Origin: an uncultured Gammaproteobacteria bacterium
Lineage (GTDB): Bacteria > Pseudomonadota > Gammaproteobacteria > Enterobacterales > Alteromonadaceae
DNA length: 64,000 bases
Assembly (NCBI GenBank): GCA_942493115.1
Contig: OW818678.1
Location: forward strand, 3,033,214 to 3,097,213
Direction: 5' to 3'
Part shown: positions 4,194 through 24,706 of the stretch, in pieces
How the letters are laid out: the number at the start of each line of letters is the position of its first letter
How positions within the stretch are numbered: the stretch's first letter is position 1
Translations under genes and position numbers: made by a program
The notes under the pieces: generated by a model
Databases searched by the model: none
Seen by the model: only the letters and a program-made list of their open reading frames with translations
Told to the model about the DNA's origin: nothing

Positions 4194-4814
4194 TTATTCA
4201 GCGGCTTTAATTTTAGCGGTATCAGGTTTAAGCAACTGCGCTATATCTTTGCCCTGGCGTTGCCATAACTCACCAAGTGCCGCCACTAAAGCCGGATAAC
4301 CATCGTCAGCCTGCGGCATTTGCAGCTGGAATTGTTGTTGCATAATGCCGCTTTGACCGCCAACCAGTGTTGTGCCCTGCGCCGGCATCAGGCTAAAACG
4401 GCCACTCAGTAGCACTGTGCCTTGTTCAGTGCCATGAAACTGCTCCACCTGCACCAATAAACGTTGCGCACCAGGCACAACACGCTCTGTCACTCTATAA
4501 CCCGGCAATTCAGCCGCTAAAGTACGCAGCAGAATACGGCTTAGTTGTTGATCTAAAGCTTCCGCCCATTGTTGTTGCTGGGTTTTCACCAGCTGCACCT
4601 CTGAGGTTTGTAAAATCAGTGCATTGCTATTGAGGTAACTGGCCACCATCACAGGCTCCACCACCAGTACAGAGGCGTTGGCAGCAGGTACAGCAGTGCT
4701 GATAGCAGGTTGTGGCAGCTGGAAATAATTAATACTCACTGCAGAGCTGCAACCCAGCAGCAACAAAACCAAAGCGGCCACTGCGGCTTGTTGACATAAC
4801 TGACGCTTTTTCAT
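4194..4814 (-). CDS. pqiC: PqiC family outer-membrane lipoprotein
   Basis: Lipobox LLGC, 'QQWAEALD' motif, LLVQVEQFHG. Overlaps the pqiB stop. Confidence 0.85.
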   Translation of the reverse strand: MKKRQLCQQAAVAALVLLLLGCSSAVSINYFQLPQPAISTAVPAANASVLVVEPVMVASYLNSNALILQTSEVQLVKTQQQQWAEALDQQLSRILLRTLAAELPGYRVTERVVPGAQRLLVQVEQFHGTEQGTVLLSGRFSLMPAQGTTLVGGQSGIMQQQFQLQMPQADDGYPALVAALGELWQRQGKDIAQLLKPDTAKIKAAE

Positions 4815-6664: not shown

Positions 6665-7955
6665 GCTGTTTCTCCATTTGTTCGGCCGGACTTGGGTCCC
6701 ACAATAATCTTGGATCAAAACTCATTGCCGCCAGCATGGTAATAATGACCACACAGGCAAAAACAAAAGTGCCCATGCCGGGATAAACCCCGACCAAAGC
6801 GTCAAACCGCACTAAAGCCGCCAGAATAGCCACCACCAGCACGTCCACCATAGACCAGCGGCCTATCCAGTCCACCACAGGATAAATCCAGGTGCCGTGT
6901 TGATTGCGCTCGTTTAGCGGCAAGGTGGTGAGGTAACACAACCAGAACATCAAGGCGATTTTTAAAATAGGAATAACTACACTGGCCAGCAACACCACAA
7001 TAGCCACAGGATAAGCCTCGTCGTGCCACATTAAAATAATGCCGCTGATAATAGTGGAATGTACACTTTCACCCAGCGACACCGTCTCCATCATCGGTAA
7101 TAAATTGGCCGGAATATATAAAATGGAGGCGGTAACCAGCAGTGCCAGAGTGCGCTGAATACTATCAGGAATACGCTGGCGCACTTTGGTGCCACAACGC
7201 GAACATCGTAATTGTTCAAGCTCCACCAATGCAGTACAACAACTGCATACTTTCAGTTGTTGGCTTAAACCTGTTTCACCGGCAATTTTACCGGCAACCG
7301 GTTGCGGTGCAGGTGCGATGCGCGACCAGAGCTCATGCCGGTCCACCACCTGAAAAGTGCGTAAATGTAATAAACAAAACAAACAAAATGCCCAGAAACT
7401 CATGCCCAATGAAATATCAAAGTGACTCAATAGCTTCACAAAACTAACAATAAGCCCCATCAGGAAGATATCCACCATGCTCCAGGGTTTGAGCATATAC
7501 AGCAGCCTTGCCGTTTGTACCAGCGCAGGTAACCGGAAAAACATACCGAGTTTCAGATAGATAATGGCGAGCATACAAAAACAGGGAATTGCCTGAATAA
7601 ACAACCAGACCAGAATAGCCAACCAGGGATGATCTTCATCCAGCAACACGGCTGAGGTATCAAAAAAGTTCATATCACGATGGCTGCCGGCAGCGTCCAT
7701 ACCGACAAATGGGAACAGGTTGGTTAACAACAACATAAAAAGTGCACTAAGTGCATACAAAATAGGCCGCAGTGCCGACTCGCGTTGCCTGGCGTCCAGC
7801 TCGTGGCCACAACGTTGGCAATCTGCTTCTTCGCCGTCTTTTAAAGCTGGAAGTTGCTGTAATAAATCACAATAACGACAAAGCACCAGCTCAGAGTCCG
7901 GTGCTTTGTGTGGTGGTGCTGTGGCAGTAGCAACCCCGCTGTCGACGGATACCAC
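6657..7955 (-). CDS. pqiA: Paraquat-inducible protein A (two PqiA domains)
   Basis: Two CxxC...CxxC clusters, WSMVDIF and RWSMVDV motifs, ends FDPRLLWD. Confidence 0.93.
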   Translation of the reverse strand: MVSVDSGVATATAPPHKAPDSELVLCRYCDLLQQLPALKDGEEADCQRCGHELDARQRESALRPILYALSALFMLLLTNLFPFVGMDAAGSHRDMNFFDTSAVLLDEDHPWLAILVWLFIQAIPCFCMLAIIYLKLGMFFRLPALVQTARLLYMLKPWSMVDIFLMGLIVSFVKLLSHFDISLGMSFWAFCLFCLLHLRTFQVVDRHELWSRIAPAPQPVAGKIAGETGLSQQLKVCSCCTALVELEQLRCSRCGTKVRQRIPDSIQRTLALLVTASILYIPANLLPMMETVSLGESVHSTIISGIILMWHDEAYPVAIVVLLASVVIPILKIALMFWLCYLTTLPLNERNQHGTWIYPVVDWIGRWSMVDVLVVAILAALVRFDALVGVYPGMGTFVFACVVIITMLAAMSFDPRLLWDPSPAEQMEKQRD

Positions 7956-9936: not shown

Positions 9937-10118
9937 GAGGTTTAACCTGTTCAGAAAAATTCCGCGCTATGGTAGCGATTTTTCAGCGTATTCTCAAACG
10001 CCATTGGCAGTGAAAGGCCTTAAACACCAATGAATTCTGCGAATTTCACCACATTTGCCGCAGCTTAAAACTACGCTATGGTTATAACTTAACACTGCGA
10101 CACAAAAAGGATTTTGTG

Positions 10119-10664
10119 ATGCCACTTAAAATACCCAACACCCGCATTTTTGCGATACAGCGCCAGCGCCGTTTTATTGCAGGATTTAGCTTGCTGGAAT
10201 TGATGATAGTGCTGAATTTACTCTTGCTGTTGTTATTAATTGGTATGCCTTCTTTACAGGAAATGATGGCCAGACAACAGGCTGAAAGTTATGTGAGGCA
10301 ATTAAAACAACAGCTGCAATACGCCAGAGTGGAAGCCATCAGCTCAGGCACTACAGTCACTTTTTGCCCTTTGCAGGGCTCTCAATGTGTGAATCAGTGG
10401 TGGCAAATCCCAATTCAGATCCTGCGCCAGACACCAGGTTCCGGTGTGCTGGCCAAGCTGCAGCAGCTGGATCGCCCGCAAAACTCCCATTGGCTTTATT
10501 ACAACCGTGAACTACTGCAATTTCGCCGTGACGGCAGTTTAAACATGTTACAAAACGGCACCTTTATTTATTGTGCCAAACAATACCGCTGGCATTACAA
10601 ACTCAGTATCAGTCAGGCCGGGCGCAGTCAGCTGAACTATGTTGATACACCCTGCCCACAATAA
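10119..10664 (+). CDS. FimT/GspH family minor pilin (set 1, inverted relative to the rest of the set)
   Basis: Class III signal G|FSLLE, 'QLQYARVEAISSGTTVTFCP' typical of FimT/FimU. SD AAGGA 7 nt before ATG 10119. Confidence 0.8.
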   Translation: MPLKIPNTRIFAIQRQRRFIAGFSLLELMIVLNLLLLLLLIGMPSLQEMMARQQAESYVRQLKQQLQYARVEAISSGTTVTFCPLQGSQCVNQWWQIPIQILRQTPGSGVLAKLQQLDRPQNSHWLYYNRELLQFRRDGSLNMLQNGTFIYCAKQYRWHYKLSISQAGRSQLNYVDTPCPQ

Positions 10665-10677
10665 CAACAAACAAAAC

Positions 10678-10707
10678 TCCCCCTGCGGCTTCACAACGGC
10701 AGGGGGA
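10678..10707. terminator. Stem-loop between convergent fimT-like and pilE-like genes
   Basis: TCCCCCTGC...GCAGGGGGA inverted repeat. Confidence 0.6.
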
Positions 10708-10754
10708 TACGTTCACAAAACATCCTGGTCCAGCGGATTTTTCAACCTTGCCAG

Positions 10755-11168
10755 CTACTGCAACCAGCAAGTTGTCTCAGGTTGACTGCTTTTAACACCA
10801 TACTGATCTAACCGGAATAACAAACAATCTTTGTCCTGTTGTTGTACTCCTGTTGCTGCTGCACTGAGTTGGTAACCCTGACTGGTTAATAACGCCGAGA
10901 TGCGAAAACGCCCCGACTCCGTCAAATAACTGCTATCAGGAAAACCAAATTCTGTTAAGTCAGCACTGTATCTGTATTGTTCAGCCAACAACAACTGCTG
11001 CATATTGGCGACTTTTAACAGTTCAGCACAGGCTTCACGCCGGTAGCTACTCAACACATGCTGCTGATAACCCGGTATTGCAACAGACAAAATGATGCCA
11101 ATCAGCGCCACCACCACCATAATTTCAATCAAGACAAAACCAAAAACAACATTTGCTGTGCTGTTCAT
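10755..11168 (-). CDS. Type IV pilin, PilE-like (set 1)
   Basis: G|FVLIE signal, PGYQQHV, C-terminal 'QQQDKDCLLFRLDQYGVK...CW'. ATG 11168 is TGATG-coupled to the upstream stop. Confidence 0.85.
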   Translation of the reverse strand: MNSTANVVFGFVLIEIMVVVALIGIILSVAIPGYQQHVLSSYRREACAELLKVANMQQLLLAEQYRYSADLTEFGFPDSSYLTESGRFRISALLTSQGYQLSAAATGVQQQDKDCLLFRLDQYGVKSSQPETTCWLQ

Positions 11169-12709
11169 CAATGCACCTCTTCCTGACGGTAAGTGGCCAG
11201 CTGCTGCCATTGTGATAATTGCTGCACATTCAACACTTCAGTACAACCAGCGCATGAAGCCGCAACACCACGCAGCGCTTCCAGCACCAGCTTACCATCT
11301 ACACTTTGCTGCAAAGCCAAACTGCCATCCTTTTGAGTTGCCAGACGTAGTGGCAGCTGCATCGGTATTTTCAGCTCCGGATCGGTATATACAGCGGACG
11401 CCTGATATAAGTGCAGTGCCAGCAACACATCAGCCTGACGCGCTTTATCACAGGCTAAAGCAGCGGTGGACACACTTTGCATTGGCAAGTACAACACACC
11501 AGCGATGATCTCCGGCAAAGCCAGCGGCTGTCCTGCCAGGGATTGCACCCAGCCAAATGCACTGCCTGGACTTGTCGTCTGACGGGCTGGCAGCTGAGTG
11601 CCCGCGGCTGCCGGCTGATGGTTTTGCTGCACATCCGCCAACAATAAAGGCGCGGTCATCTGTTCCGGTAAAAACAGCACCATCAACTGATATTGCTGCT
11701 GCCTTTCAGCAAGCAGCACCACCACATCCACGGCTTTTCTGCTGACACTTTGTGATGTTGCCCCCTGTACCGGCAACAAGGCTCTGACTGCAAGCAGCCG
11801 GCTGGCAAATGACAAACCTTGCCCCGCCAGATTAGCCACCAGCGAACTCTGGTAGCTAAAATCACTTGCCATATCAAGCCGCAATAATTGCCCTTGTTCG
11901 TCAATCTGATAAACCCGATCAAAGGCTCCATCACCATCCAAGTCCAAAGTTGCCGGTGGCGCCTTTAACGCGCCAACAGCAACTGCAGCTTGTTGACCTT
12001 GCCGGTAACCACTTTGTAAATCCAATTCAGCAAGCAGTTGGCCTGTTGCCGCACTCAGCAGCCAGAGCGCTGGCTTGGCTGCCGTTGCAGAATTAATCAA
12101 TAACACCGCTTGTTGTTTTTCCAGCCAGGCGAGCACCGGTGTTTGCAACCAGGCATTTTGCTGAGCCGTGGGTGGCGACCAGCGCCACAATAAACGCGGT
12201 GCTTGTAAGTCGCTCAGATCAGCACGCTGGTATTGATCAGCTGCCATATCGTGCCAAACCACATCGGTGGATACCGCACGTGGCTGAGACGTCGCTGCCC
12301 CGGTTTTAGCTGAAGTTGCTGCGGGCAATAACAACAAGGGTGGAGCAATTAAAGAGGCAGCATCAGCTTCAGGCAAAACACCTGTTGCTGGTAGTACGGT
12401 GTCAGATAATAAAACGCCAGTAGCTTCAGCACCAAACCAGCGCAGATTGCCCTGTTCATTGCCAAGCTGCAGCCAGATTGGCTGACCTGCGCTGTTGTTA
12501 AACGGCAGTGGTACTGTATCCGGACGGGGCGCTGCACAAAAAGCGCCGGTGATAGCCGGCGTTGCAGCCAGCTCCTGATAACTTAAATCAGCTTGTGGCT
12601 GATAAAAGCGTATAGTTGCCGCCGCCGTCCCTGCTGCAAATGCCTGAGCAGGCGTGGTCAAAGTGTACAAGGTTGTGATCAACCAAAGCCCAAGAGTCCA
12701 TTTGTTCAT
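11168..12709 (-). CDS. Short, divergent PilY1/PilC-like secreted protein (set 1)
   Basis: Sec signal (MNKWTLGLWL...AQAFA), Ca-loop-like DLDGDGAFDRVY, FGWVQSL segment. Occupies the pilY1 position between pilX-like and pilE-like genes. ATG 12709 is TGATG-coupled with SD GGAGG. Confidence 0.65.
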   Translation of the reverse strand: MNKWTLGLWLITTLYTLTTPAQAFAAGTAAATIRFYQPQADLSYQELAATPAITGAFCAAPRPDTVPLPFNNSAGQPIWLQLGNEQGNLRWFGAEATGVLLSDTVLPATGVLPEADAASLIAPPLLLLPAATSAKTGAATSQPRAVSTDVVWHDMAADQYQRADLSDLQAPRLLWRWSPPTAQQNAWLQTPVLAWLEKQQAVLLINSATAAKPALWLLSAATGQLLAELDLQSGYRQGQQAAVAVGALKAPPATLDLDGDGAFDRVYQIDEQGQLLRLDMASDFSYQSSLVANLAGQGLSFASRLLAVRALLPVQGATSQSVSRKAVDVVVLLAERQQQYQLMVLFLPEQMTAPLLLADVQQNHQPAAAGTQLPARQTTSPGSAFGWVQSLAGQPLALPEIIAGVLYLPMQSVSTAALACDKARQADVLLALHLYQASAVYTDPELKIPMQLPLRLATQKDGSLALQQSVDGKLVLEALRGVAASCAGCTEVLNVQQLSQWQQLATYRQEEVH

Positions 12710-13077
12710 CACACACCTCCTGCAACAACGGACGCTAAGTCCCGCCGCCATACCAAAGTCCCCCAGGGTTCAGCTTCATCCGGCGCTGTAGCGGTATCCG
12801 CCAGCTGTAACAACTGACATTGCTGGCTGGTGTCACTCCAGACCGCCCACTGTGGCGGGCAGGTAATACTGGTAGCTCCGGGTTGTGGCGCTGCGGCCAG
12901 CTGCTGTAACTGGCGTAAATGTTTCACCTTCATCGTCAGGTAACGCTGCGTTTGCAGCTGCCCTGCTATACCTATCCGTTGGCTGAGTTGACTGATAGTC
13001 AAAGCGCTGAACGCCATAGCGCTGACCATCACGATAAAACACAAACAGACAACAAGCACAAATCCTTTGGCCTGCAT
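12709..13077 (-). CDS. PilX-like minor pilin (set 1)
   Basis: KG|FVLVV signal lacking Glu5, the hallmark of the PilX/GspK class. Position after the pilW-like gene. Confidence 0.7.
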   Translation of the reverse strand: MQAKGFVLVVCLCFIVMVSAMAFSALTISQLSQRIGIAGQLQTQRYLTMKVKHLRQLQQLAAAPQPGATSITCPPQWAVWSDTSQQCQLLQLADTATAPDEAEPWGTLVWRRDLASVVAGGV

Positions 13078-13094
13078 CTTGATTGCTCCTTCAG

Positions 13095-14036
13095 TTAATA
13101 GTTGTGAAAGGTGACTGCGCTGGACACCAACAAGCGGCGATAATGATCACCAGGTGCCTGGAACAGCCGTTGTCCCAAGGCGTACTGCTGCACATTGGTA
13201 TAGTGCTTGTCCGGTATCGTACTGCGTACCAGCACAAAAAAACGCAGCTGCAATACCTGACCACTGCGTTGCTGCCAGACATCGGCAGAGATTTGGTCCA
13301 TATCACTGAGATAGTCCACCTGACCGTCAAAATTGCTGTCGATACCGACATCGAAATGCAACATTTCCACCCCATCCAGCACCGAATCTGTGTCCATAGT
13401 CAGCTGGCCACTGGCCTGGCGCACCAGTCGTTTACGCATCAGCACCGGCACTTGCTGCTGACCCTGCGTCTGCAAGGCTACATAAAATAACTGATGCAAA
13501 TATGGCCAATAGGTAAACTGAGCACCGCCCGATGCCTGACTGACAAATTGGTATTGCCGACCCTTTTGTTGTAAATACACTCTGTTATTTTTAGTCTGAG
13601 CGGCAGTCAGCGGAGCCCCCGCCAAGCGTTTTAATTGTAAAAAACCAGAACCTTTGTGCATTGAGGCAATACAATCCGGGGTATGAACTGCCCCCACAGT
13701 ACCGGCAAGCACTGGGACAAAAACTGCAGAAGCCTTTGGAAAACTGCCACTATCAAGTGCACTGCGGCAATCTCCCTGCACTGTAATAGCTGATGGCGCC
13801 GGCAATAAGCCGGCATTGGCACCAGCCCAGAAATTCTGATTCGTCAGTTCCTGCTGGAAAAAACCCAGCACAAACTGCCCACTTTGTTGTAGTTCACTCA
13901 GTTGGCTGGTTTGTTTAAACGCCTGATAATTTACCTGCCAGCTATTGACCAGCAGCAGTGTCAACAACAGGCTCAGTGCCATAGCAATCAGCATCTCAAT
14001 CAAAGTCCAGCCACGCTGGCATATAATGCCTGCCAT
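13095..14036 (-). CDS. PilW-like minor pilin (set 1)
   Basis: RG|WTLIE signal, 'LDGVEMLHFDVGIDSNFDGQVD' and 'VLQLRFFVLVRS...YRRLL' C-terminal motifs typical of PilW. Confidence 0.82.
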   Translation of the reverse strand: MAGIICQRGWTLIEMLIAMALSLLLTLLLVNSWQVNYQAFKQTSQLSELQQSGQFVLGFFQQELTNQNFWAGANAGLLPAPSAITVQGDCRSALDSGSFPKASAVFVPVLAGTVGAVHTPDCIASMHKGSGFLQLKRLAGAPLTAAQTKNNRVYLQQKGRQYQFVSQASGGAQFTYWPYLHQLFYVALQTQGQQQVPVLMRKRLVRQASGQLTMDTDSVLDGVEMLHFDVGIDSNFDGQVDYLSDMDQISADVWQQRSGQVLQLRFFVLVRSTIPDKHYTNVQQYALGQRLFQAPGDHYRRLLVSSAVTFHNY

Positions 14037-14037
14037 G

Positions 14038-14517
14038 TTAAAGTCCCCGCCCCGGTAACAACTCCAGCTGGAAATGACCTGGCCTGACCGGACACAAAGC
14101 AGATTTACGCTGAAATGACGCTTGTTGCAGCGGTTGCCAGCTCAGGTTGACTGCCGGGCCGGCAGCACTGCTGCGAATACAAAGTTGTGCCTGAGGCAAC
14201 AAAGCTGAAGGTGCAAAAAGAGGACTAACACTTGCCATGAGCTGCGCTTGCAACAGCATCTGCGGGTCGCATAAGCCTGCGCTGTTACAAGGTGCCGCTG
14301 CTGGTTTTTGTTGAATATCGGCCTGAAAATGGCCGGAACTGGCTGCAACCGACTGCAGGGATGACATCACATCGGCAGCTACCGCAGCTGCAATCAGACG
14401 TTGTTGGGCTTGCAGTACCTGCTGTCTGGCATAAATCTGACAACTCAGGGCGCCAAGCATGCCAAGACTAAACAGCAGGCAGCAGATCAATAACTCAAAT
14501 AAGGTGAATCCTTTCAT
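14038..14517 (-). CDS. PilV-like minor pilin (set 1)
   Basis: MKG|FTLFELL signal, first gene of the set, Cys pairs. Confidence 0.72.
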   Translation of the reverse strand: MKGFTLFELLICCLLFSLGMLGALSCQIYARQQVLQAQQRLIAAAVAADVMSSLQSVAASSGHFQADIQQKPAAAPCNSAGLCDPQMLLQAQLMASVSPLFAPSALLPQAQLCIRSSAAGPAVNLSWQPLQQASFQRKSALCPVRPGHFQLELLPGRGL

Positions 14518-14605: not shown

Positions 14606-15034
14606 TCAACCCCAGCATTTGCGGACTATTGTTGCAGTGTTAGAGCCGGCCGCAGTGCGGAGCCCTGCCTGATTTAAGGTTAAAGTGGCGCAACTGATGT
14701 CTTTTAATTGTGGCCCTTTTGGTGCTGCTGTTAACACAAAAGTCTGAGCAGCAGCATTCAGGCTAAAAGCATAAAAGTTATCCAGATCAATACGGCAACT
14801 GGTTTGCGGTAACACTGTGGTAACCCCGTTGGACTGACCGTAATTCATCGAACCGGTATAAACCCGCTCCATAAACTGCGCCAGTTCATTCATACAGGAA
14901 GTGGCTGCGGCACGCCTGGTTTCCAGTACGTATTTGGCATACGCCGGCATCGCCACTGCCGCAATAATGCCAACAATAGCCACCACCACCATCACTTCCA
15001 TTAAACTAAAACCCTGCTGCCGGCGCATCTTCAC
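14606..15034 (-). CDS. pilE: Type IV pilin PilE (set 2)
   Basis: QQG|FSLME signal, MPAYAKYVLETRRAAA, 'PQLKDISCATLTLNQAG', ends CWG. Confidence 0.88.
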   Translation of the reverse strand: MKMRRQQGFSLMEVMVVVAIVGIIAAVAMPAYAKYVLETRRAAATSCMNELAQFMERVYTGSMNYGQSNGVTTVLPQTSCRIDLDNFYAFSLNAAAQTFVLTAAPKGPQLKDISCATLTLNQAGLRTAAGSNTATIVRKCWG

Positions 15035-15037
15035 TCC

Positions 15038-18000
15038 TTAATTACTGATTTCATGCCAGGACAACATCTGCCGGGCCACTGAAGCATTGACTGCGGTTCC
15101 GCACATATTGACGCCGTCACAATTGGCAAGCGCCAGCACATTATTGCCATTTTTGGCAAAAGTAACCACGCTGTTTAAACTGCCCACTCTGATCCCACTG
15201 ACGTCAGTGGCAGTGCCTGACACCTGTACCTTATCGGCATGATCAAAGTTTTTATCTTTTGAGCTGTCAAAAAAGACTTTTTTCAACCTGCTGCCGCTAT
15301 AAGCCGACAACGCCATGATGTAACCTGAACCACTTGGGTTACACACATTGGTATCGGGAATAGTGGTATTGAGCACTAAATCGCCGCCCAACATTGAAGG
15401 CATATCAACAATACGTTCGTGAGCGTCCACCAAATCCATATACCAGCCTTTTTTACCTGTTGTCAGGCCTGCGGCATAACTGACCACCCGCTTATCACCC
15501 ACAGTGGTAATAACACGAGCATCCAGCTCGGCTCTGGATGCTACTGCAGGGCCATCCATAATGCCGTACATACTTTGTTGGTCGGGATTTGACGGATCAT
15601 CCTGATTTAAATAACGTCCGGTGCCAAAAAACAACCAGGCTTTGCCGGTTTTAGGATCCACATTAGCCAGTATGCCGCCGGTAATCATCTGACGTTTACC
15701 GGCGCTATTGGTGGCCGAAAACAAAGGCTGACCATTATTGGCGATAGTCCAGCCGGCTTCGTTTGCCGCCGACAGATCAAACTTCCAGACATGACCATGT
15801 AAATCGCCGCCATATACCCAATCGACATTGCCGTCATTATCAATATCCAGAGTACTGATTTCAGACATGCCATTGGTGTCTGTGGACGTGCCTTTGCCAG
15901 TTGGCAGTTTTTTAATGATATTTCCGCTCAGGATGTCAATCACCAGAAGGCCGGACTGTTCAGTACTGTTGTTATAGCCATAACCTGCAATGAGCGCCCA
16001 ATGTCCGCTTTCCATCCGGAATACCTGGGGCTCACCAAGATAAACGCCCAATTCAGCAAAAGTTTTATCCCACAACACATTGTTGCCGCTAAAACTGTCA
16101 GGGCTGGTTACATCCAGCGCAAAGAGCGCATTGCCACCACGGCCCTGACTACCAATCAACACACTTTTCCAGTTGTTACCATCATAAACATCCACCACTG
16201 TGGGTGAACCATCAACCGAAAAAGCATGCTGATAGTTTTGTTCCGAGTATTTTTTCAGGATGTTGGCCTTACCATTACTGCCGCTTAGTGGCGCCATTAC
16301 AGCAGCCGGAATAAAAGCCAGCAGCTCCCGGCCGGTGTCGGCATTAAAACCATGCAACATACCGTCGTTACCACCCACATAAATCACCGGGGTGCGTCTT
16401 TTTACACTGCCTTCCAGAAAACTGCGATATGACGCAGCACCAGCCCAGCTATACCTGTGATAACTCATGTCTACAGGCGCAGAAACCAACTCAGGCGAAG
16501 AGTTCACTAAGTCACCCAACAAGCTGGTTCTGTCGCGCAGCAATCCACCGTTTTTCTTTTCTCTGGCCTGATCACCCCGGATATAGTCAATCAAAGTCTG
16601 ATCATTGTTAAAGGCTTTTTGCTCGGCCGCACTCATCTCACTCCAGACAAAAGACTTAGCGCCGCCACTACTACTGCCAAACCAAATGTTACGGGCCGCA
16701 GGCGCTGGCAATTGTTCACTGGCTTTCCACACTGGCGTACTGACATCATCCACTTTGTAAGACCATAAATCGCCAGCCCAATCACCTGCAACAAAACGCG
16801 CCTGATAGACATTGGATTCGGTTTGCAAAGAGTTAATGGCCGTAGCGGCGATATTGGACGCTGAGCCTGCCCGCGCTGAAATATTGGCTAAGGTATTGGC
16901 AAGACCTGTGGAAAAAACACTGTATTTATTGGCACTGAAAAAACCACCCCGACCATTGACACTGGCATGCAATAAATCGTTAATTTTGTTTTGTTTTTCA
17001 CTACCGCCCCACCAGTTCACCGCACTTTTACCACCGATGGCATTAAAACCCTGCTCTGCGGTGACTGTACCCGTCACCCCAAGACCCACCCCAAAGGTCA
17101 CCATATGTTGCCAGAAAGCCGGGTTCAGATTTGGCATTGGCACAGGCACTGAATTCTCCATGTCAGGGCGCAAATCGTTTTTCCAGTATTTCATCGCCAC
17201 ATCGGCCAGTGTATTGCCGTAACCATCCCGGAACGGGTCGCTGGCTTGATAAGTGTAATCCGGGTTATTTGGCCCCGTCATAGTGACACCGTCAGTGCCA
17301 TCCTGATTGCCACCCGCGTCCACTGTGCCGTCGTAATAACCGTCCGTCATCAGAATGGTAAAATTCTGCCGGCATTCTAATTTTGCCGAGTTTGGATCTG
17401 ATGGCACTGTAAGCCAGGGTTTGTCGCTTTGATAATATTGACCTGCTTTATCAAGAGCAGCCAGCAAAGGGGTGCCGCCGTCGGCTTTTTTGCCATGTAA
17501 CCAGCTGAAAAAACCACTACGATTGCCACCGCCAAAAGGCGCAACATCGGCGGTCACAACACCGCTGTTAATAGCACCATAACCAACACGCATAGATGTT
17601 AACTGACTTTGAAAAGCGCCTGAAACACCGGCCTTGGCCAACATCAGCCGGGTACGGTAAAACGAAAACCAGTTGGCGAATTTTTGTTTTTCAGCAGCCC
17701 CAAGATTTGCAACATTGACGTACTCATAGCAACTGTCGCTGCGTTCAGCCGAAGTACAACCAGTGTTGTATTTAAAATAAAAGGCCGGACCCGCAGTCCG
17801 GTTGCTGGCACTGCCACTAATAGCAAAACCATAAGTGCCATTACGGTTTGGATAATAAAAATCGGCAATTAACGCGTAATATTGGCTGCTTAAATTGACT
17901 GTTCCCGAAGTAGGGCTATAGCCATTATTGGGGGCCGCATCAAAAGAGGGTTCAGGATAAGGCGTCACACCATCGGCCTGTAGTGGTAGCGGATAATCTT

Positions 18001-18352
18001 CTGTCGGGTCAAAATAGACAGTATTGAGCTGACTGGAAGCTAGATATTTGCGGCCACTTGCACTGCAGGCCAGCGCTTTGGCACCGGCGTAGTTAATTGT
18101 TGATCCACTACAATCGTGACTCAGGTTAAAGTCTGTATCCAGTTCATCCGGCATAAAACCCCAGCGCATTGAGCCGGAGTCGTCCAGAATAAACAAAAGG
18201 TTTGGCGCTACCGCAGTCCCTGTTTCCAGCGGTGCCTGAGCAATATCCACTGCAGCTTGTGCTGTACTTACAGCAAAACAAGCACCGAGTAGCAGCCACT
18301 GGCCGCGGACAGCAAAGGTTTTTTCGCAAATGACATCATTGTTCTCCTGCAA
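15038..18352 (-). CDS. pilY1: Type IV pilus tip adhesin PilY1 (vWA + beta-propeller); 5' end possibly frameshifted (see findings)
   Basis: PNLLFILDDSGSM (MIDAS), GGTPL, WQHMVTFGVGLG, LGDLVNSSP, YVGGNDGMLHGF, VDGSP, Ca-loop DIDNDGNVDWVYGGDLHGHVWKFDL, FFGTG, GWYMDL. Confidence 0.92.
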   Translation of the reverse strand: MQENNDVICEKTFAVRGQWLLLGACFAVSTAQAAVDIAQAPLETGTAVAPNLLFILDDSGSMRWGFMPDELDTDFNLSHDCSGSTINYAGAKALACSASGRKYLASSQLNTVYFDPTEDYPLPLQADGVTPYPEPSFDAAPNNGYSPTSGTVNLSSQYYALIADFYYPNRNGTYGFAISGSASNRTAGPAFYFKYNTGCTSAERSDSCYEYVNVANLGAAEKQKFANWFSFYRTRLMLAKAGVSGAFQSQLTSMRVGYGAINSGVVTADVAPFGGGNRSGFFSWLHGKKADGGTPLLAALDKAGQYYQSDKPWLTVPSDPNSAKLECRQNFTILMTDGYYDGTVDAGGNQDGTDGVTMTGPNNPDYTYQASDPFRDGYGNTLADVAMKYWKNDLRPDMENSVPVPMPNLNPAFWQHMVTFGVGLGVTGTVTAEQGFNAIGGKSAVNWWGGSEKQNKINDLLHASVNGRGGFFSANKYSVFSTGLANTLANISARAGSASNIAATAINSLQTESNVYQARFVAGDWAGDLWSYKVDDVSTPVWKASEQLPAPAARNIWFGSSSGGAKSFVWSEMSAAEQKAFNNDQTLIDYIRGDQAREKKNGGLLRDRTSLLGDLVNSSPELVSAPVDMSYHRYSWAGAASYRSFLEGSVKRRTPVIYVGGNDGMLHGFNADTGRELLAFIPAAVMAPLSGSNGKANILKKYSEQNYQHAFSVDGSPTVVDVYDGNNWKSVLIGSQGRGGNALFALDVTSPDSFSGNNVLWDKTFAELGVYLGEPQVFRMESGHWALIAGYGYNNSTEQSGLLVIDILSGNIIKKLPTGKGTSTDTNGMSEISTLDIDNDGNVDWVYGGDLHGHVWKFDLSAANEAGWTIANNGQPLFSATNSAGKRQMITGGILANVDPKTGKAWLFFGTGRYLNQDDPSNPDQQSMYGIMDGPAVASRAELDARVITTVGDKRVVSYAAGLTTGKKGWYMDLVDAHERIVDMPSMLGGDLVLNTTIPDTNVCNPSGSGYIMALSAYSGSRLKKVFFDSSKDKNFDHADKVQVSGTATDVSGIRVGSLNSVVTFAKNGNNVLALANCDGVNMCGTAVNASVARQMLSWHEISN

Positions 18353-18361
18353 TCATTTTGC

Positions 18362-18862
18362 TTAGATCCGCCAGATAGCCTGGATGGTTACACTGGCGCG
18401 GCCTGCCACTGGAGCTGTTCTGGCCGTCACCCGGTAGGTTTGTTTTTCACACAATGGGTCTGTCACTTTACAGGTTGGATTTTGTGGATCCGGCCACATA
18501 CCAAGGTTTTCCACCATAAATTCACCTGTGTAGTTGTTGCCATTTACCGCCAACGCAACCTGGCCGCGGTTGGCCCAAGCCACCGGGTCCTGCCATAAAT
18601 CCGGGGCTCCGGCCACCGGTGCCGGTAAGGTTGCGCGATACCAGCCAGACCCGGCTGGTGGTGGCAATAAGGTGGCCCCCACCTGCCTGACTGTCGCTTC
18701 TGCTACCTGTTTGGCAATTTCCCTGTCGTTAAAATTAGCCGCCATTTTTTCCTGCAAAGTGGTGCTGCGCATCGCGCTGACTGCCAGCAACGTCATGGCA
18801 ACCAACAATAATAAACTGACCACTAACGCCATACCGCGGCTGTTGGATCTTGAGTGTTTCAT
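18362..18862 (-). CDS. pilX: Minor pilin PilX (set 2)
   Basis: SRG|MALVV (no Glu5), 'RSTTLQEKMAANFNDREIAKQVAEA', YRVTART. ATG 18862 directly follows the pilW stop. Confidence 0.88.
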   Translation of the reverse strand: MKHSRSNSRGMALVVSLLLLVAMTLLAVSAMRSTTLQEKMAANFNDREIAKQVAEATVRQVGATLLPPPAGSGWYRATLPAPVAGAPDLWQDPVAWANRGQVALAVNGNNYTGEFMVENLGMWPDPQNPTCKVTDPLCEKQTYRVTARTAPVAGRASVTIQAIWRI

Positions 18863-18863
18863 C

Positions 18864-19826
18864 TCAAATCTCCCTTCTGTTGCGTAAATTAACAACCTGA
18901 CTGATTTGCCGCATGCCAAGGGCCATTGGTGTTTTGATATTGTCTTCCAGGGTTAACACCGCCCGTACCGACATCACAGTTTCCCAGTCCACAACAGCAG
19001 GCGCATCCACATAGTTGGCGTTGCCTCTTTGCAAATACTGCAATTGCAGGTTGGCAACCCCCGGAATAATTTCTTCCACCCGGAGCTGACCTGCCACCAC
19101 CACCACCCGGTACAACGAATTCAGATTATTGCGGGTGCCGACAAACCAGGCCGCCGACTCCATTGGCATCACAAAACCGGCATCACTACTGATATTGCGC
19201 TGATAAGGTGTGCCATTGGGCGCTACACCAAACTGCAGGATGCGGTTGCCCGGTGTACCGGCGCCTACCGCATGACTCAGGGCATTGCCTGCCACTGCTG
19301 TCACCTGAAAAATCAGCCCCCATTTGGAGTCGCAGGACATCACTATATCGTTGGCGACTATGCCTGCCAGATTCTGATTAATCGTCATGGCCGGGTTGCC
19401 GGCGGCATTATGCGAAACCACAGAAGCACTGATACCACGGCCATACATCACCATCAGCGCATCAGTATTGGCCAGTGGCACCACAGCGCCATTACTGAAG
19501 TTTGGAAAAGCGCCAAATTCAAAACCCTGTAAACCACCAGTCCAGTTGTTCCACCAGTCCAGGGGCGGATTCAGCGCATTAAACACTTGAGGCACCATGA
19601 CGTTACTGCAACCTGAGTAGCCGGCATGCTGGATATCCTGACTTAACAGCTGAAAACTGACCTGACTGGCTTGTTGTAACTGACTGATTTGCTGATTCAC
19701 TCTGTTGGTTGTCTGATTGGAGATATAAACCCCAATCACACCGGCCACCAAAAAGGTGCCAAGCAGCAGCGCCACCATCAGTTCAGTCAGAGAAAAACCC
19801 TGCGCCCTTTGAAAAGTCCGGAACAT
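18864..19826 (-). CDS. pilW: Minor pilin PilW (set 2)
   Basis: QG|FSLTELMVAL, DIQHAGYSGC, EEIIPGVANLQLQY, WETVMSVR, ends VVNLRN. Confidence 0.9.
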   Translation of the reverse strand: MFRTFQRAQGFSLTELMVALLLGTFLVAGVIGVYISNQTTNRVNQQISQLQQASQVSFQLLSQDIQHAGYSGCSNVMVPQVFNALNPPLDWWNNWTGGLQGFEFGAFPNFSNGAVVPLANTDALMVMYGRGISASVVSHNAAGNPAMTINQNLAGIVANDIVMSCDSKWGLIFQVTAVAGNALSHAVGAGTPGNRILQFGVAPNGTPYQRNISSDAGFVMPMESAAWFVGTRNNLNSLYRVVVVAGQLRVEEIIPGVANLQLQYLQRGNANYVDAPAVVDWETVMSVRAVLTLEDNIKTPMALGMRQISQVVNLRNRREI

Positions 19827-19828
19827 GA

Positions 19829-20311
19829 TTAAATCCTTGCCACGTGGGTAATGGTCATAGTGGTGCTGCCGCCAAGCGCTCTGGAGTCATCCCATTGCAC
19901 TGTCACAATGTAAGTGCGTGTGCCGGCGTTATAAGTCACACCACCACAACTGGTGCCGGAGTCCCCAAAGGTGGTCAGAATTTCATTCAGCCAGTTGGAC
20001 TGCTCAACACTCTGAATGGAAGCGCCGGCGGACAGCTGAGTGCATTGTAATGGCAACACAAAACTGCCGTTGCCGGCAGCTGCCGCATTGGCCCTGATGC
20101 GCTCGGCCATACTGCTGGCTAATAACACCGCCATGGTGCGCTGGTGGGCACTTTGCGTATTACGGATATTGGCCGTCTGCAAACCGGCAACCCCCAATAA
20201 ACCAACAGAAAGCACCAACACCGCAATCAGCACTTCCAGCAGGGATACGCCTTTTTGCAGTTTCAGGCGGGCGCTCAAACCGTCTTGCCCGCGGCGAAGA
20301 TTCAATTTCAT
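19829..20311 (-). CDS. pilV: Minor pilin PilV (set 2)
   Basis: KG|VSLLEVLIAVLVLSVGLLGVAGLQ, RTMAVLLASSMAERIRAN, VQWDDSR. SD GAGG before ATG 20311. Confidence 0.9.
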   Translation of the reverse strand: MKLNLRRGQDGLSARLKLQKGVSLLEVLIAVLVLSVGLLGVAGLQTANIRNTQSAHQRTMAVLLASSMAERIRANAAAAGNGSFVLPLQCTQLSAGASIQSVEQSNWLNEILTTFGDSGTSCGGVTYNAGTRTYIVTVQWDDSRALGGSTTMTITHVARI

Positions 20312-20340
20312 CGACAATTCCTCAATGATTAGTTTTCCGA

Positions 20341-20913
20341 TCAGGTGCAAACACCCGAAGCATCGGACGACAACACCTGAATACGGCCACCGGAGTCAAA
20401 CTGCAGATCACGGATATTTGGCTTGGTTTGTGGTTGGGCGACACAAAAGCGGATTTGTGCCGACAAAGGTGTATTGTTGGCAGGCATTCTGGCCAACCCC
20501 TGAGGGGTAAAACGAACGGCATGGCCTGCAGCCGCCAGGCTGGCATCTGAACTGACTTTCATCGGTGCCTGCGGAAACAAACCCGAACGCAAAGCCGGCA
20601 CTGTTGGTGCAGCCATGGCAACAGCGGCGGTTTGTACTATCCAGCCTTCCCAGCCGCTGGCTGCCGGCACAGTGCAGGTCATATTGTTATTGGAGTGACA
20701 AAAAACAACGGCTTGATTCAGCCGGATGGCTTCGCTGCGGGCATAAACCAACGCGGTACGGATTTCATCCGTCTGACCACTGAGTTTATTACCGCTGATC
20801 AGGGAGCTAAAAGAAGGCAACATAATGCTGAGACTGACAATAAGTACCGTCATCGCAACCAGCAATTCAATTAAGGTGACGCCACGCTGATACTGCTGTT
20901 GTTTCACCGGCAC
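20341..20913 (-). CDS. fimT: FimT/FimU family minor pilin (set 2)
   Basis: RG|VTLIE signal, ALVYARSEAIRLNQAVVFC, WEGW, VRFTPQG. SD GGGAG before the GTG start. Confidence 0.85.
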   Translation of the reverse strand: MPVKQQQYQRGVTLIELLVAMTVLIVSLSIMLPSFSSLISGNKLSGQTDEIRTALVYARSEAIRLNQAVVFCHSNNNMTCTVPAASGWEGWIVQTAAVAMAAPTVPALRSGLFPQAPMKVSSDASLAAAGHAVRFTPQGLARMPANNTPLSAQIRFCVAQPQTKPNIRDLQFDSGGRIQVLSSDASGVCT

Positions 20914-21009
20914 TGCAAAATCTCCCTTGTCACTTGATTAGCACAGGCAACATATTTGTTGCCGAAGCGTAATTTAATGTAACAAGATGGCGAAATAACA
21001 GCCTTTTCT

Positions 21010-21044
21010 GACCAGCGGTAACAACAGCCGACAAACGGTAACAA
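21010..21044 (-). promoter_or_regulatory. Two tandem AlgR/LytTR-type boxes upstream of the fimT-pilVWX-pilY1-pilE operon
   Basis: Plus-strand GACCAGCGGTAACAA (21010-21024) and GACAAACGGTAACAA (21030-21044), 13/15 identical, 20-bp period. Minus strand contains ACCGTTTGTC and ACCGCTGGTC, resembling the P. aeruginosa AlgR site (A/G)CCGTT(C/T)GTC. Confidence 0.6.
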
Positions 21045-21060
21045 GAGAAAAAATGGACTT

Positions 21061-21777
21061 TTACAGCGACCCCGCCAGCAACTGCCGGATTTTTGCCAGC
21101 TCACGCCGGCTCACTTCCAACCGCTGACTACACTGCCAGAGTTCGAGCAGATGTTTACCGTCGCTCTGATGGTGCAGGGCTTTAATCCGACGTTTTAACA
21201 CCAGCGTATTGCGGTGAATACGCACCAGCTCTTGCCCAAACTGCTCTTCCAGCTGTTTCAGGCTGAGATCACTTAAAGCTTCACCGCCGGCAAAGACAAA
21301 ACGGACATATTTGTCTTCAGCCTGCAGGTAGAACATTTGTTGCAGCTCAACCCTTTGTAAACTGTTGCCACTTTTGTAGCTTAACCATTGCTGCGACTGC
21401 TGTTTTTGCAGATGAGCTTTGGTGGTGAGGCCAATACGTTGCAAAGTGGACGCCAGCTGTTCAGCACTGACAGGCTTCAGCAGATAATCGGCAGGCGCCA
21501 CCTGATAAGCCTCCAGCGCATGTTGTGGATGAGCGGTCAGAAACACCACTGCAGGTGGCAACGACAGATGTAACAATTCAGCCGCCACACTTAAACCATC
21601 ACGGCCCGGCATTTTAATATCGAGAAACACCAGGTCGGGCTGTAAACTGGCAGCCAGTGCCAGGGCTGTTTCGCCGTCACTGGCCTCTGCGACGACCTGA
21701 TGCTCAGCAAAAGCGGACAACAGGCGTTGTAATCTGGCTCTGGCTAAAGGTTCATCATCAACAAGCAGAATTTTCAT
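21061..21777 (-). CDS. algR: LytTR-family response regulator, AlgR-like
   Basis: REC domain (VDDEPLAR, FLDIKMPG, FLTAH, DYLLKP) plus LytTR domain (AEDKYV, LKQLE, VRIHRNTLV, VSRR). Confidence 0.78.
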   Translation of the reverse strand: MKILLVDDEPLARARLQRLLSAFAEHQVVAEASDGETALALAASLQPDLVFLDIKMPGRDGLSVAAELLHLSLPPAVVFLTAHPQHALEAYQVAPADYLLKPVSAEQLASTLQRIGLTTKAHLQKQQSQQWLSYKSGNSLQRVELQQMFYLQAEDKYVRFVFAGGEALSDLSLKQLEEQFGQELVRIHRNTLVLKRRIKALHHQSDGKHLLELWQCSQRLEVSRRELAKIRQLLAGSL

Positions 21778-22823
21778 CAGACATTCCCGACAGTAGTGAT
21801 CAATGGGACCACCAGCTTGACGCGAAATTCACCTTGTTGGGTGCTGGTGCTGAGCCTGGCTGCTGCACCAAATTGCAACTCCAGCCGACGTCTGATGTTG
21901 TCCAGCGCCATACCATTGCCGCCACGCCCCGGCAATTCAGGCAATGGATTGGTGACCAAAATGGTTAAAAATGCATTGGATAACAGCAGTTCAACACTAA
22001 TGGTGCCACCTTTATGGCAACGCTCCACCCCGTGATGTACTGCGTTTTCCAGCAGCGGTTGTAACGTCAGGCAGGGCAACTGCGCTTTTGGCAATTGCGC
22101 CGGCACCTGCCATTGCAGCTTTAATCTGTCACCAAGCCGCCATTGCTCCAGCGCCAGATAACGTTTTGCCAGCGCCAGCTCTTCCTCAAGCTCAGCCACA
22201 GTACCGGCATTTAGCGCGGCACGGAACAAACTGGCAAGATCCAATAACGCCGCTTCAGCAGCCGCCGGATCCTGTTGGGTCAGCTCAGCCACCGTATTGA
22301 GGCTATTAAATAAAAAATGCGGACGAATTCTCGCTTGCAAAGCATCCAGTTCTGAACGTGATTGCGCCTGCAAACGCCAGCTGTGCTCAATATAAAGCGC
22401 AAATAGCTGTATCCCCATGCCGCCGACCAACAACGCAATCAGCAAGGTTTGCAAAATAAAAGCAAGATAATCGGCGCGACTTTGCCAGCCATGATGGCTC
22501 AACAACATAAAAGCGGCAGTGCTGACCAGCAGAGTTACCAGCAACAACAACAACAAAGCAACGCCACTGAGTTGCCGCGGCGGCAGATGTAATAAAGGTT
22601 TTTTAAACTGACACAACAAGGCAACTGTTAATAAAGCCACCCAGTGCACAAACAACGACACCAAACCAAGGCGGGCCCAGAAATCCTGATCCAGGGTGGG
22701 CGCCAGCGACAATAAAATGGCCAGCGCCTGTGCCAATACCAGCACACGAACCACAATACGGCCCTGACAAAAAGCCGGCAACAATTGCTCAAACTGCAGA
22801 TTTAACGCCGATTGAGCTGTCAT
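21777..22823 (-). CDS. fimS: LytS-type sensor histidine kinase, FimS/AlgZ-like
   Basis: N-terminal LPAFCQ followed by TM helices, ELDALQARIRPHFLFNSLN, EELALAKRYLALEQWRLGDRL, LQPLLENAVHHG, GNGMALDNIRRRL. Confidence 0.78.
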   Translation of the reverse strand: MTAQSALNLQFEQLLPAFCQGRIVVRVLVLAQALAILLSLAPTLDQDFWARLGLVSLFVHWVALLTVALLCQFKKPLLHLPPRQLSGVALLLLLLVTLLVSTAAFMLLSHHGWQSRADYLAFILQTLLIALLVGGMGIQLFALYIEHSWRLQAQSRSELDALQARIRPHFLFNSLNTVAELTQQDPAAAEAALLDLASLFRAALNAGTVAELEEELALAKRYLALEQWRLGDRLKLQWQVPAQLPKAQLPCLTLQPLLENAVHHGVERCHKGGTISVELLLSNAFLTILVTNPLPELPGRGGNGMALDNIRRRLELQFGAAARLSTSTQQGEFRVKLVVPLITTVGNV

Positions 22824-22834
22824 GCTGTTGTTCC

Positions 22835-23764
22835 TTAACGAAGTTCTGCCGGTACAGCAAAAACCACGTTTTCTTCACGGCCCGGGTGTTCAATCACTTG
22901 TTTGCCACCCCAGACTGTCAGTTGCTGCACCACCTGCTGCACCAAAACTTCAGGTGCGGAAGCGCCGGCGGTCACACCCACAGCCTTCACCTCAGCCAGC
23001 CAGCTTTGTTGAATATCTGCTGCGGTATCAATTAAATAAGCCGTACAACCCATTTTTTCGGCCAGCTCACGTAAGCGGTTGGAGTTACTGCTGTTTTTAG
23101 CCCCCACTACCAACAATAACTGCACTTTAGCCGCCAGTTCACGTACCGCATCCTGCCGGTTTTGCGTGGCGTAACAAATATCGTCTTTACGCGGGCCTTC
23201 AATATCCGGGAATTTTTTCCGCAGTGCATCAATCACATCAGCGGTATCATCCACCGACAAGGTGGTTTGACTGGAAAAGCACAAATCAGCCGGGTTTTTC
23301 ACCTCCAGCTGTTCGACATCTTCCACCGACTCCACCAGATAAATACCACCGGCCGGGTTATCGTATTGGCCCATAGTGCCTTCCACTTCAGGATGGCCGG
23401 CATGACCAATCAGAATACACTCCACCCCTTTGCGGCTGGCGCGAGTCACTTCCATATGCACTTTAGTCACCAGTGGACAGGTGGCGTCAAATACTTTTAA
23501 ACCCCGTTGTTTGGCATTTTCCCGCACCGCCTGCGACACACCATGAGCGGAAAAAATCACAATGTTGCCATCCGGCACTTCATCCAGTTCGTCAACAAAG
23601 ACCGCACCGCTGCGACGCAAACCGTCTACCACAAACTTGTTATGTACCACTTCGTGGCGTACATAAATCGGCGGTTCGTACAGCTCTAAAGCGCGGGAAA
23701 CAATGCTGATAGCACGGTCAACACCGGCACAAAAACCACGGGGATTGGCGAGAAAAATATCCAT
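22835..23764 (-). CDS. ispH: 4-hydroxy-3-methylbut-2-enyl diphosphate reductase
   Basis: [50 protein letters not shown]. Confidence 0.98.
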
Positions 23765-23766
23765 CT

Positions 23767-24198
23767 TTAGTTTGTTACCTGCACAATTTCAACGTTAAAG
23801 GTCAGCGTCTGGCCGGCCAAGGGGTGATTAAAATCTACCGTCACTGAATCACCCACTACTTCGCGGATAAGGCCCGGCAATTCAGAGCCGTCCGGCATGG
23901 CAAATCCAACAATCATGCCAACCTGAGCCGGCGCTTCCATGGAAAACTTGCTGCGGTCGACATAATAAATATTATCCGGGTTTGGCATGCCGTAAGCATC
24001 TTCAGGCGCCAGCGTAAAAGTTTTTTTATCACCGGCAGCTAAACCCGCAAGTTCAGCTTCAAAAGCCGGTGACAAAGAACCATCACCCATCTGCAACCTT
24101 GCCGGTTTGTTATGCACCCTTGTACTTTCTGCGGCGCTGCCATCAGACAGTTTGATATCAAAGTGAAAAATGACAGTACTGCCAGCTCCAATCAACAT
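23767..24198 (-). CDS. fkpB: FKBP-type peptidyl-prolyl cis-trans isomerase (SlpA)
   Basis: [20 protein letters not shown]. Position between lspA and ispH. Confidence 0.95.
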
Positions 24199-24211: not shown

Positions 24212-24706
24212 TTATTTAGTTTTATCTACCACATCGGGTGAAAAGCTGTCCCAAATCAACAGGCCTGCGCCAATGGTAATAGCGCAGTCGGCAATATTAA
24301 ACACAGGGTAATGCCACTCTTGATAATAAACATGTAAAAAATCAACAACATAACCATAGAGGCTGCGGTCAATCAGGTTGCCGATAGCACCGGCAACAAT
24401 CAGCACCAGCGCCAGCGATAATTTCCATTCGGCCCGTTGTAACCTGGATAACCAAACACTGAGTACGATGGATACCACCACGGCGATCAGCGTAAACAAC
24501 CAGCGTTGCCAGCCACCGGCATCACCCAGAAACGAAAAAGCGGCGCCATAGTTGCGGGCATAAGTAAAATTAAATACCGGCAACAGCTGAATAGATTCAC
24601 CCAGCTCAAAACGCTGCAACACCCAGATTTTGGTCAGCTGATCCGCGACCAGCACCAGAAGCGCCAGCCACCAGAAACGCCAGCCGGACTCTTTAAATAA
24701 CACCAT
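24212..24706 (-). CDS. lspA: Signal peptidase II
   Basis: DQLTK, NYGAAFSFL, GAIGNLIDR, VVDF, FNIADCAI. Confidence 0.98.
   Translation of the reverse strand: MVLFKESGWRFWWLALLVLVADQLTKIWVLQRFELGESIQLLPVFNFTYARNYGAAFSFLGDAGGWQRWLFTLIAVVVSIVLSVWLSRLQRAEWKLSLALVLIVAGAIGNLIDRSLYGYVVDFLHVYYQEWHYPVFNIADCAITIGAGLLIWDSFSPDVVDKTK

Follow-up and report, generated by a model that had tools for sequence, protein, structure and literature searches.

We propose that two boxes between a LytTR-type response regulator gene and a minor-pilin operon are, with good probability, the tandem operator of this regulator, a putative AlgR orthologue, which from there would activate fimT/U-pilVWXY1E. The boxes resemble the AlgR sites of Pseudomonas aeruginosa, and their cores and spacing are kept in related lineages in which the rest of the intergenic region has diverged. 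All coordinates refer to the window, i.e., the whole 64-kb stretch of DNA that was analysed.

Organisation of the locus

The whole module from lspA to pilE is encoded on the minus strand and is listed here from its upstream to its downstream end.

24212-24706, minus strand: lspA
23767-24198, minus strand: gene for an FKBP-type isomerase, between lspA and ispH
22835-23764, minus strand: ispH, directly 5' of the kinase gene
21777-22823, minus strand: gene for a LytS/AlgZ (FimS)-type histidine kinase, 348 aa (Pfam PF06580)
21061-21777, minus strand: gene for an AlgR-like response regulator with REC and LytTR domains, 238 aa (Pfam PF00072, PF04397)
20914-21060: gap of 147 bp from the regulator stop to the pilin GTG start
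20341-20913, minus strand: gene for a GspH-domain minor pilin of the FimT/FimU family, first gene of the operon (Pfam PF12019, PF07963)
19829-20350, minus strand: pilV (TIGR02523 PilV; NCBIfam/Pfam)
18864-19826, minus strand: pilW (NCBIfam/Pfam)
18362-18919, minus strand: pilX (NCBIfam/Pfam)
15038-18352, minus strand: pilY1 (NCBIfam/Pfam)
14606-15034, minus strand: pilE (NCBIfam/Pfam)

The genes pilV-pilW-pilX-pilY1-pilE (14606-20350) are tightly packed or overlap, and their NCBIfam and Pfam matches comprise TIGR02523 PilV, N_methyl, PilX_N, T4P_PilY1 and ComP_DUS. These gene calls uphold the initial annotation in that regulator gene, candidate operator and pilVWXY1E operon are adjacent, and the ORF coordinates agree with its placement of a direct repeat inside the 147-bp gap between the LytTR regulator gene and the pilin gene. 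Its naming of the first operon gene as fimT holds for the pilin family (GspH), while the choice between fimT and fimU cannot be made from the GspH domain alone. The prepilin leader of this first pilin is MPVKQQQYQRG/VTLIE.

From the ispH stop to the kinase start there are 11 bp (22824-22834), and the kinase and regulator ORFs share base 21777, so that the two-component genes may be co-transcribed with lspA-fkpB-ispH. Neither a separate promoter nor an AlgR box was seen upstream of the kinase gene.

Identity of the regulator and the kinase

The regulator has a phospho-acceptor Asp53 and the LytTR motifs RIHRN and VSRR. The best NCBIfam match over its full length is BtsR; an assignment as BtsR was ruled out, since its 143 bits fall far short of the equivalog cutoff of 246 bits and both the pilin gene context and the box sequence differ. 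Some homologues of the regulator are named AlgR in their source annotations. Homologues with 35-45% identity from Gammaproteobacteria are found in kinase-regulator-hemC-hemD clusters, and PMC5790918 gives the P. aeruginosa arrangement as algZR-hemCD. In both the pilin-linked and the hemCD-linked clade, the LytTR motifs A-D/E-x-KYV, R-I/V/L-HR and VSRR and the receiver aspartate are present without variation. Based on its domains and on the hemCD-type context of its homologues, the regulator is a well-supported candidate for an AlgR orthologue. Among solved structures, matches were limited to the receiver domain, and neither AlgR nor a close LytTR-DNA complex from which contact residues could be mapped was among them.

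In 76 of 80 loci, the gene immediately 5' of the regulator gene encodes a homologous kinase. In the Pfam search the kinase matched PF06580 alone, with no HATPase_c match at E<=0.001, which fits the reported lack of ATP-binding motifs in P. aeruginosa AlgZ.

Two AlgR-type boxes with a 20-bp period

The elements of the gap are as follows.

21030..21038, minus strand: box 1, the AlgR-type core CCGTTTGTC distal to the promoter, with an A before it at 21039
21019..21029, minus strand: spacer GGCTGTTGTTA between the cores, 11 nt, giving the 20-bp period
21010..21018, minus strand: box 2, the AlgR-type core CCGCTGGTC proximal to the promoter, with an A before it at 21019
20994..20999, minus strand: candidate -35 position, GTTATT, 2/6 matches to TTGACA, 17 nt upstream of the predicted -10
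20979..20985, minus strand: GTAACAA heptamer, TTGTTAC when read on the minus strand, located in the promoter spacer shortly before the predicted -10
20971..20976, minus strand: predicted -10 hexamer TAAATT, 33 nt after box 2
20946..20963, minus strand: perfect palindrome GGCAACA-AATA-TGTTGCC with 7-bp arms, beginning at about the predicted +1 (read from the sequence)
20921..20926, minus strand: Shine-Dalgarno sequence GGGAGA, 7 nt before the pilin GTG (read from the sequence)

On the minus strand, the sequence of the gap is TAA-AAGTCCATTTTTTCTCTTGTTA-CCGTTTGTC-GGCTGTTGTTA-CCGCTGGTC-AGAAAAGGCTGTTATTTCGCCATCTTGTTACAT-TAAATT-ACGCTTC-GGCAACAAATATGTTGCC-TGTGCTAATCAAGTGACAAGGGAGATTTTGCA-GTG. Counted from the GTG of the GspH pilin gene, which is followed by pilV, W, X, Y1 and E, the boxes are located 97-125 bp upstream. 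Re-reading the sequence reproduced the 15-bp direct repeat described initially, i.e., GACCAGCGGTAACAA at 21010-21024 and GACAAACGGTAACAA at 21030-21044 on the plus strand, identical in 13/15 positions at an offset of 20 bp, and likewise its two minus-strand readings ACCGTTTGTC and ACCGCTGGTC. A repeat is thus present as described, but its unit is not 15 bp, since the conserved unit spans only the 9-10 bp of (A/G)CCGYNNRTC. The cores of the two boxes agree in 7/9 positions, and the 13/15 identity is obtained with an extension that is specific to the lineage. This TTGTTA extension is already gone from box 1 in L087, whose regulator is 97% identical, and it was ruled out as a part of the site due to its absent conservation among relatives.

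P. aeruginosa AlgR binds 9-mers of the CCGTTCGTC type, and the footprinted variants include CCGTTTGTC, CCGTTGGTC and CCGTTCATC. Box 1 is identical to one of these footprinted sites, algD-RB3. Box 2 matches the AlgR consensus in 7/9 positions and carries C at position 4, compared to T in all 11 published P. aeruginosa sites that were used; such CCGC cores recur in the clade at either box (L001, L005, L007, L008). A weight matrix made from these 11 sites scored box 1 with 13.2 bits and box 2 with 9.2 bits.

The window holds seven direct repeats of at least 13/15 at offsets of 15-40, compared to about one in shuffled sequence, and a 13/15 repeat taken alone is only mildly unusual. The single 9-mer CCGTTNRTC is not enriched in the window (2 seen, 2.1 expected). 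Its other strict match, at 60877, is inside a long ORF and was taken as chance. The tandem pattern CCGYNNRTC-N10-12-CCGYNNRTC occurs once in the 64 kb, at the boxes, and in none of 100 Markov simulations.

Conservation of the boxes in relatives

About 17 related lineages with regulators of 50-97% identity carry the tandem pair, and in 14 of them the 20-bp period is exact. Regulator homologues in this range of identity come from groundwater, freshwater and marine metagenomes, and those from named genera belong to Rheinheimera, Arsukibacterium, Pseudoalteromonas and Nitrincola. By exact-protein look-up, nine closer relatives with regulators of 65-97% identity were retrieved. All nine have the gene order ispH-kinase-regulator-gap-GspH pilin-pilV-pilW-pilX-pilY1, and each of their gaps contains two (A/G)CCGTTNRTC cores with an 11-nt spacer, while the remainder of the gap has diverged beyond alignment. 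The pair was also present in Rheinheimera L007, L008 and L009, in Pseudoalteromonas L005 and in Arsukibacterium L212. The window shares its 11-bp spacer with 13 other lineages; in L001 and L002/L214 the spacer is 12 bp long.

The boxes of the relatives were found independently of any alignment, by a regular expression and by the matrix. Since it was built from P. aeruginosa sites alone, the matrix is independent of the window. Taking the best same-strand pair 19-22 bp apart, it recovered the boxes in 16 of 17 gaps at a distance of 20 bp (21 bp in two), and the pair score was reached by none of 500 shuffles of each gap. The tandem regular expression, run over 707,690 bp of retrieved loci, matched in every pilin-promoter gap and in two other places only. 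Phylogenetic footprinting, which had been suggested initially as a check, bears out the fixed 20-bp period and gave a mean information of 1.69 bits per column for box 1 and 1.60 for box 2, compared to 0.67 for the spacer, 0.33 upstream and 0.40 downstream. The claim that the AlgR recognition code is kept in a distant genus is likewise strengthened, as besides the algD-RB3 identity of box 1, variants in the relatives (CCGTTGGTC) equal the footprinted mucR site of P. aeruginosa.

It is this conservation that places the boxes above chance. A functionless repeat arisen by chance or mutational duplication, or an array of three sites formed by the 15-mer and a third GTAACAA, would be suggested by the seven short-range repeats, which show that such repeats are not rare in the window, by the unenriched 9-mer and by the three occurrences of the TTGTTAC heptamer in the gap. 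We regard this as most improbable, since cores and spacing are kept down to about 50% regulator identity, whereas no such conservation is seen for the flanks, the TTGTTA extension or the third core. The third GTAACAA core of the initial annotation does exist at 20979-20985; it is kept only in L087 (97%), while L088 (89%) has an altered version and the other relatives lack it. Lacking CCG, unconserved beyond L087 and lying in the promoter spacer, it is therefore not a box. The layout kept in the relatives therefore argues for a real regulatory site of the expected kind, as known from P. aeruginosa. The boxes have what is typical of AlgR sites, namely a 9-bp core that matches CCGTTCGTC or a footprinted variant and a position in a minor-pilin/PilY1 promoter region. 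They also have what is typical of LytTR tandem sites, with two imperfect repeats of 8-13 bp on the same strand and a spacer close to the usual 12 bp whose length appears to be under selection, while its sequence is free to vary.

An unbiased scan of metagenomes with the exact tandem pattern gave at least 120 stretches. Most of these were simple-sequence repeats or AT-rich tandem boxes from unrelated taxa, and among them the contig L147 alone was informative; outside the pilin-promoter context the bare tandem pattern is therefore unspecific. Eleven contigs from unrelated taxa carry ACCGTTTATC-N10-ACCGTTC(A/G)TC pairs with a 20-bp period in AT-rich intergenic regions. On three others a matching pair is present on the same contig as a LytTR system with about 30% identity to that of the window.

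Since some of these CCGTTYRTC-like pairs occur next to LytTR systems that are only distantly related, this type of motif is not restricted to orthologues of AlgR, and it may be common to other LytTR regulators. This could mean that another DNA-binding protein, be it a different LytTR regulator or an unrelated factor, occupies the boxes and that the adjacent regulator controls other genes. We hold this to be distinctly improbable, given that regulator gene and boxes adjoin in at least 14 lineages, that the boxes match a matrix derived from AlgR sites only, and that the link between AlgR and fimU is established in P. aeruginosa.

The predicted promoter and further elements of the gap

A scan of the minus strand of the gap found neither a consensus sigma-70 promoter nor an intrinsic terminator, and we therefore infer the promoter from conservation. 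In all 15 lineages compared, a TAnnnT hexamer follows the end of box 2 at a distance of 31-33 nt, compared to a background of 2.8% per position, and it is likewise present in Arsukibacterium L212, as counted by eye. In Rheinheimera and Pseudoalteromonas relatives a TTGnnn is found near the candidate -35 position. The poor -35 of the window, together with the empty scan for a consensus promoter and a terminator, fits the layout of a promoter that needs an upstream activator. Transcription is predicted to start at about 20963, which would put the cores at about -74..-66 and -54..-46, a placement derived from the predicted -10. At AgrA-type promoters the proximal box abuts the -35 element; here it ends 9-10 bp upstream of the candidate -35 and does not abut it.

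In L087 one arm of the palindrome at 20946-20963 carries a mismatch, and in L088 the palindrome is missing. It possibly forms a hairpin at the 5' end of the mRNA or serves as an operator. A terminator function was rejected, because a T run is missing and the palindrome is not conserved. Its half-site TGTTGCC resembles TTGTTACC, which precedes the boxes. The GGGAGA of the Shine-Dalgarno sequence is kept in both L087 and L088.

Since no terminator was found, read-through from the regulator gene into the operon may occur. Public RNA data comprised low-depth metatranscriptome contigs and none from an isolate, too little to place the transcription start. In contigs from one dataset, the pilin gene is covered up to 20939, within the predicted 5' UTR, and the regulator gene is uncovered, which weakly hints at pilin gene expression separate from that of the regulator gene.

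Do the boxes belong to the pilin promoter or to the regulator gene?

The boxes could also act negatively or in autoregulation, either as a roadblock or repressor site that limits read-through from ispH-algZ-algR or by repression at the pilin promoter itself. Their position 8-60 nt after the regulator stop, with no terminator between the genes, would suit such a role, and AlgR does repress some promoters in P. aeruginosa, e.g., rhlA. In the Rheinheimera sp. MAGs L002 and L214 (R. tilapiae-type) the boxes at ~4745-4790 are on the strand opposite to the pilin gene and have a 21-bp period. This inverted pair overlaps a near-consensus promoter-like sequence, TTGACC-N17-GATATA, a geometry typical of repressors, and represents a different and possibly repressive architecture within the same genus. 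For the window we nevertheless consider a negative role unlikely. The fixed distance of 31-33 nt to a -10-like hexamer in 15 lineages, combined with a weak -35, is the geometry of an activator site, AlgR activates the homologous operon of P. aeruginosa, and two loci, L001 and L147, have no upstream regulator gene from which read-through could start.

In the R. texasensis MAG L001, the regulator gene is followed by a convergent cluster, and the boxes are found about 3 kb away on the other strand (7820-7900), before a rearranged pilE-fimT-pilV-pilW operon. The pair reads CCGCTGGTC-N12-CCGTTCATC, followed after 31 nt by TAATAT, so that boxes and -10 spacing have moved together with the operon. 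The metagenome contig L147 has CCGTTTATC tandem boxes between ispH and a GspH pilin gene (262-483) with no kinase or regulator gene in between, which suggests that the link of boxes and promoter exists also where the algZR genes are located elsewhere. Both cases speak against a function linked to the regulator gene's 3' end and fit a pilin-promoter site for a diffusible regulator. The boxes thus go with the pilin promoter and not with the regulator gene. Nitrincola has one recognisable box only, which overlaps the regulator stop codon.

A second pilin-like gene set

Directly downstream of pilE, a second set of pilin-like genes occupies 10116-14517 of the window.

14038-14517, minus strand: PilV-like gene
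13095-14036, minus strand: PilW-like gene
12709-13077 and 11168-12751, minus strand: two ORFs with no Pfam hit
10755-11210, minus strand: second ComP_DUS/PilE-type pilin gene
10116-10664, plus strand: second GspH FimT/FimU-type gene

Tandem AlgR boxes were not found near this set (10116-14517). With an offset of 20 bp, the window has just one further direct repeat of 13/15 or better; it is found at 11361, inside the 527-aa ORF at 11168-12751.

Proposed mechanism and implications

Activation of the operon by the adjacent putative AlgR orthologue could proceed as follows. The regulator would be phosphorylated at Asp53, with the AlgZ/FimS-type kinase as its partner, and would then bind as a head-to-tail dimer to CCGTTTGTC and CCGCTGGTC, which are two helical turns apart. 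The dimer would recruit RNA polymerase to a sigma-70 promoter whose -10 (TAAATT) is good and whose -35 is poor. By this, fimT/U-pilV-pilW-pilX-pilY1-pilE would be switched on and type IV pilus assembly primed. We infer binding, activation and the transcription start from the sequence, and the dependence on phosphorylation from the work on P. aeruginosa.

With these boxes, the link from AlgR to minor pilins appears to reach from Pseudomonas to distant freshwater and marine gammaproteobacteria, with an essentially unchanged recognition sequence, although hemCD-linked regulators are only about 40% identical to that of the window. The element adds no new mechanism; its value lies in a clean and very regular promoter architecture and in the compact grouping of kinase and regulator genes with the operator and its target operon. 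Due to this compactness and regularity, the module offers a simple system for studying DNA binding and activation by AlgR-type LytTR dimers, and it could be used to address a possible feedback of PilY1 and the minor pilins on the kinase, as described for P. aeruginosa. In genome annotation, CCGTTNRTC-N11-CCGTTNRTC located 31-33 nt before a -10 hexamer should predict minor-pilin promoters in these genomes.

Tentatively, and with less confidence than not, we extend this to the view that AlgZR is a dedicated minor-pilin/PilY1 regulator in the group related to Rheinheimera, Arsukibacterium and Pseudoalteromonas, that this was its ancestral job, and that the geometry reflects the canonical binding mode of an AlgR dimer. 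If so, the global virulence regulator of Pseudomonas would have begun as a regulator of a pilin operon, and the invariant geometry of a 9-bp core, an 11-bp spacer and 31-33 nt to the -10 would represent that canonical mode. It would also provide a model for why AlgR sites in P. aeruginosa are usually not tandem repeats of the LytTR type, a question left open by a review of AlgZR.

Comparison with known systems

The closest counterpart is the AlgZ(FimS)/AlgR-fimU system of P. aeruginosa, which likewise combines a LytTR regulator and a PF06580 kinase with two AlgR-type 9-mers in front of a minor-pilin/PilY1 operon. According to PMC4064291 and PMC8787478, AlgR acts at two sites upstream of fimU and thereby activates fimU-pilVWXY1Y2E, for which it must be phosphorylated; the sites are given there as ABS1, CCGTTTGGC, and ABS2, CCCTCGGGC (Belete et al. 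2008, cited in PMC4064291; PMC8787478). The core consensus CCGTT(C/T)GTC is common to this operator and to ours, and both boxes described here are far nearer to the consensus than is ABS2. The arrangement differs in that the two-component genes immediately precede the operon here and are flanked by ispH and the pilin gene. Furthermore, a single FimT/FimU-type gene heads the operon and is preceded by the boxes, whereas the P. aeruginosa sites lie between fimT and fimU. Unlike in P. aeruginosa, no Vfr/CRP-like site was seen by eye near the boxes. The literature searched contained no description of AlgZR beside a minor-pilin operon or of the boxes outside Pseudomonas.

Among the enterobacterial LytTR regulators BtsR (YehT) and YpdB, BtsR is the best family match of the regulator, whereas the pilin gene context and the box sequence set the system apart. 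As a review summarises, LytTR regulators in general recognise a pair of imperfect direct repeats separated by about 12 bp, and this spacing is critical. The operators of AgrA, ComE, PlnC/D, VirR and FsrA resemble the boxes in that each consists of two such repeats (8-13 bp) at a distance of about two helical turns, with critical spacing; they are located upstream of an activator-dependent promoter, as is predicted for the boxes. They differ in a spacer of about 12 bp, compared to 11 bp (period 20) here, where the core is of the AlgR type. The review of AlgZR states that the AlgR sites at algD, algC and other promoters deviate from the rule of LytTR tandem repeats, and compared to the fimU operator the canonical LytTR geometry is strictly kept here. 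Since the AlgR sites at algD and algC are not tandem, the promoter class described here brings AlgR-type cores into the canonical LytTR layout.
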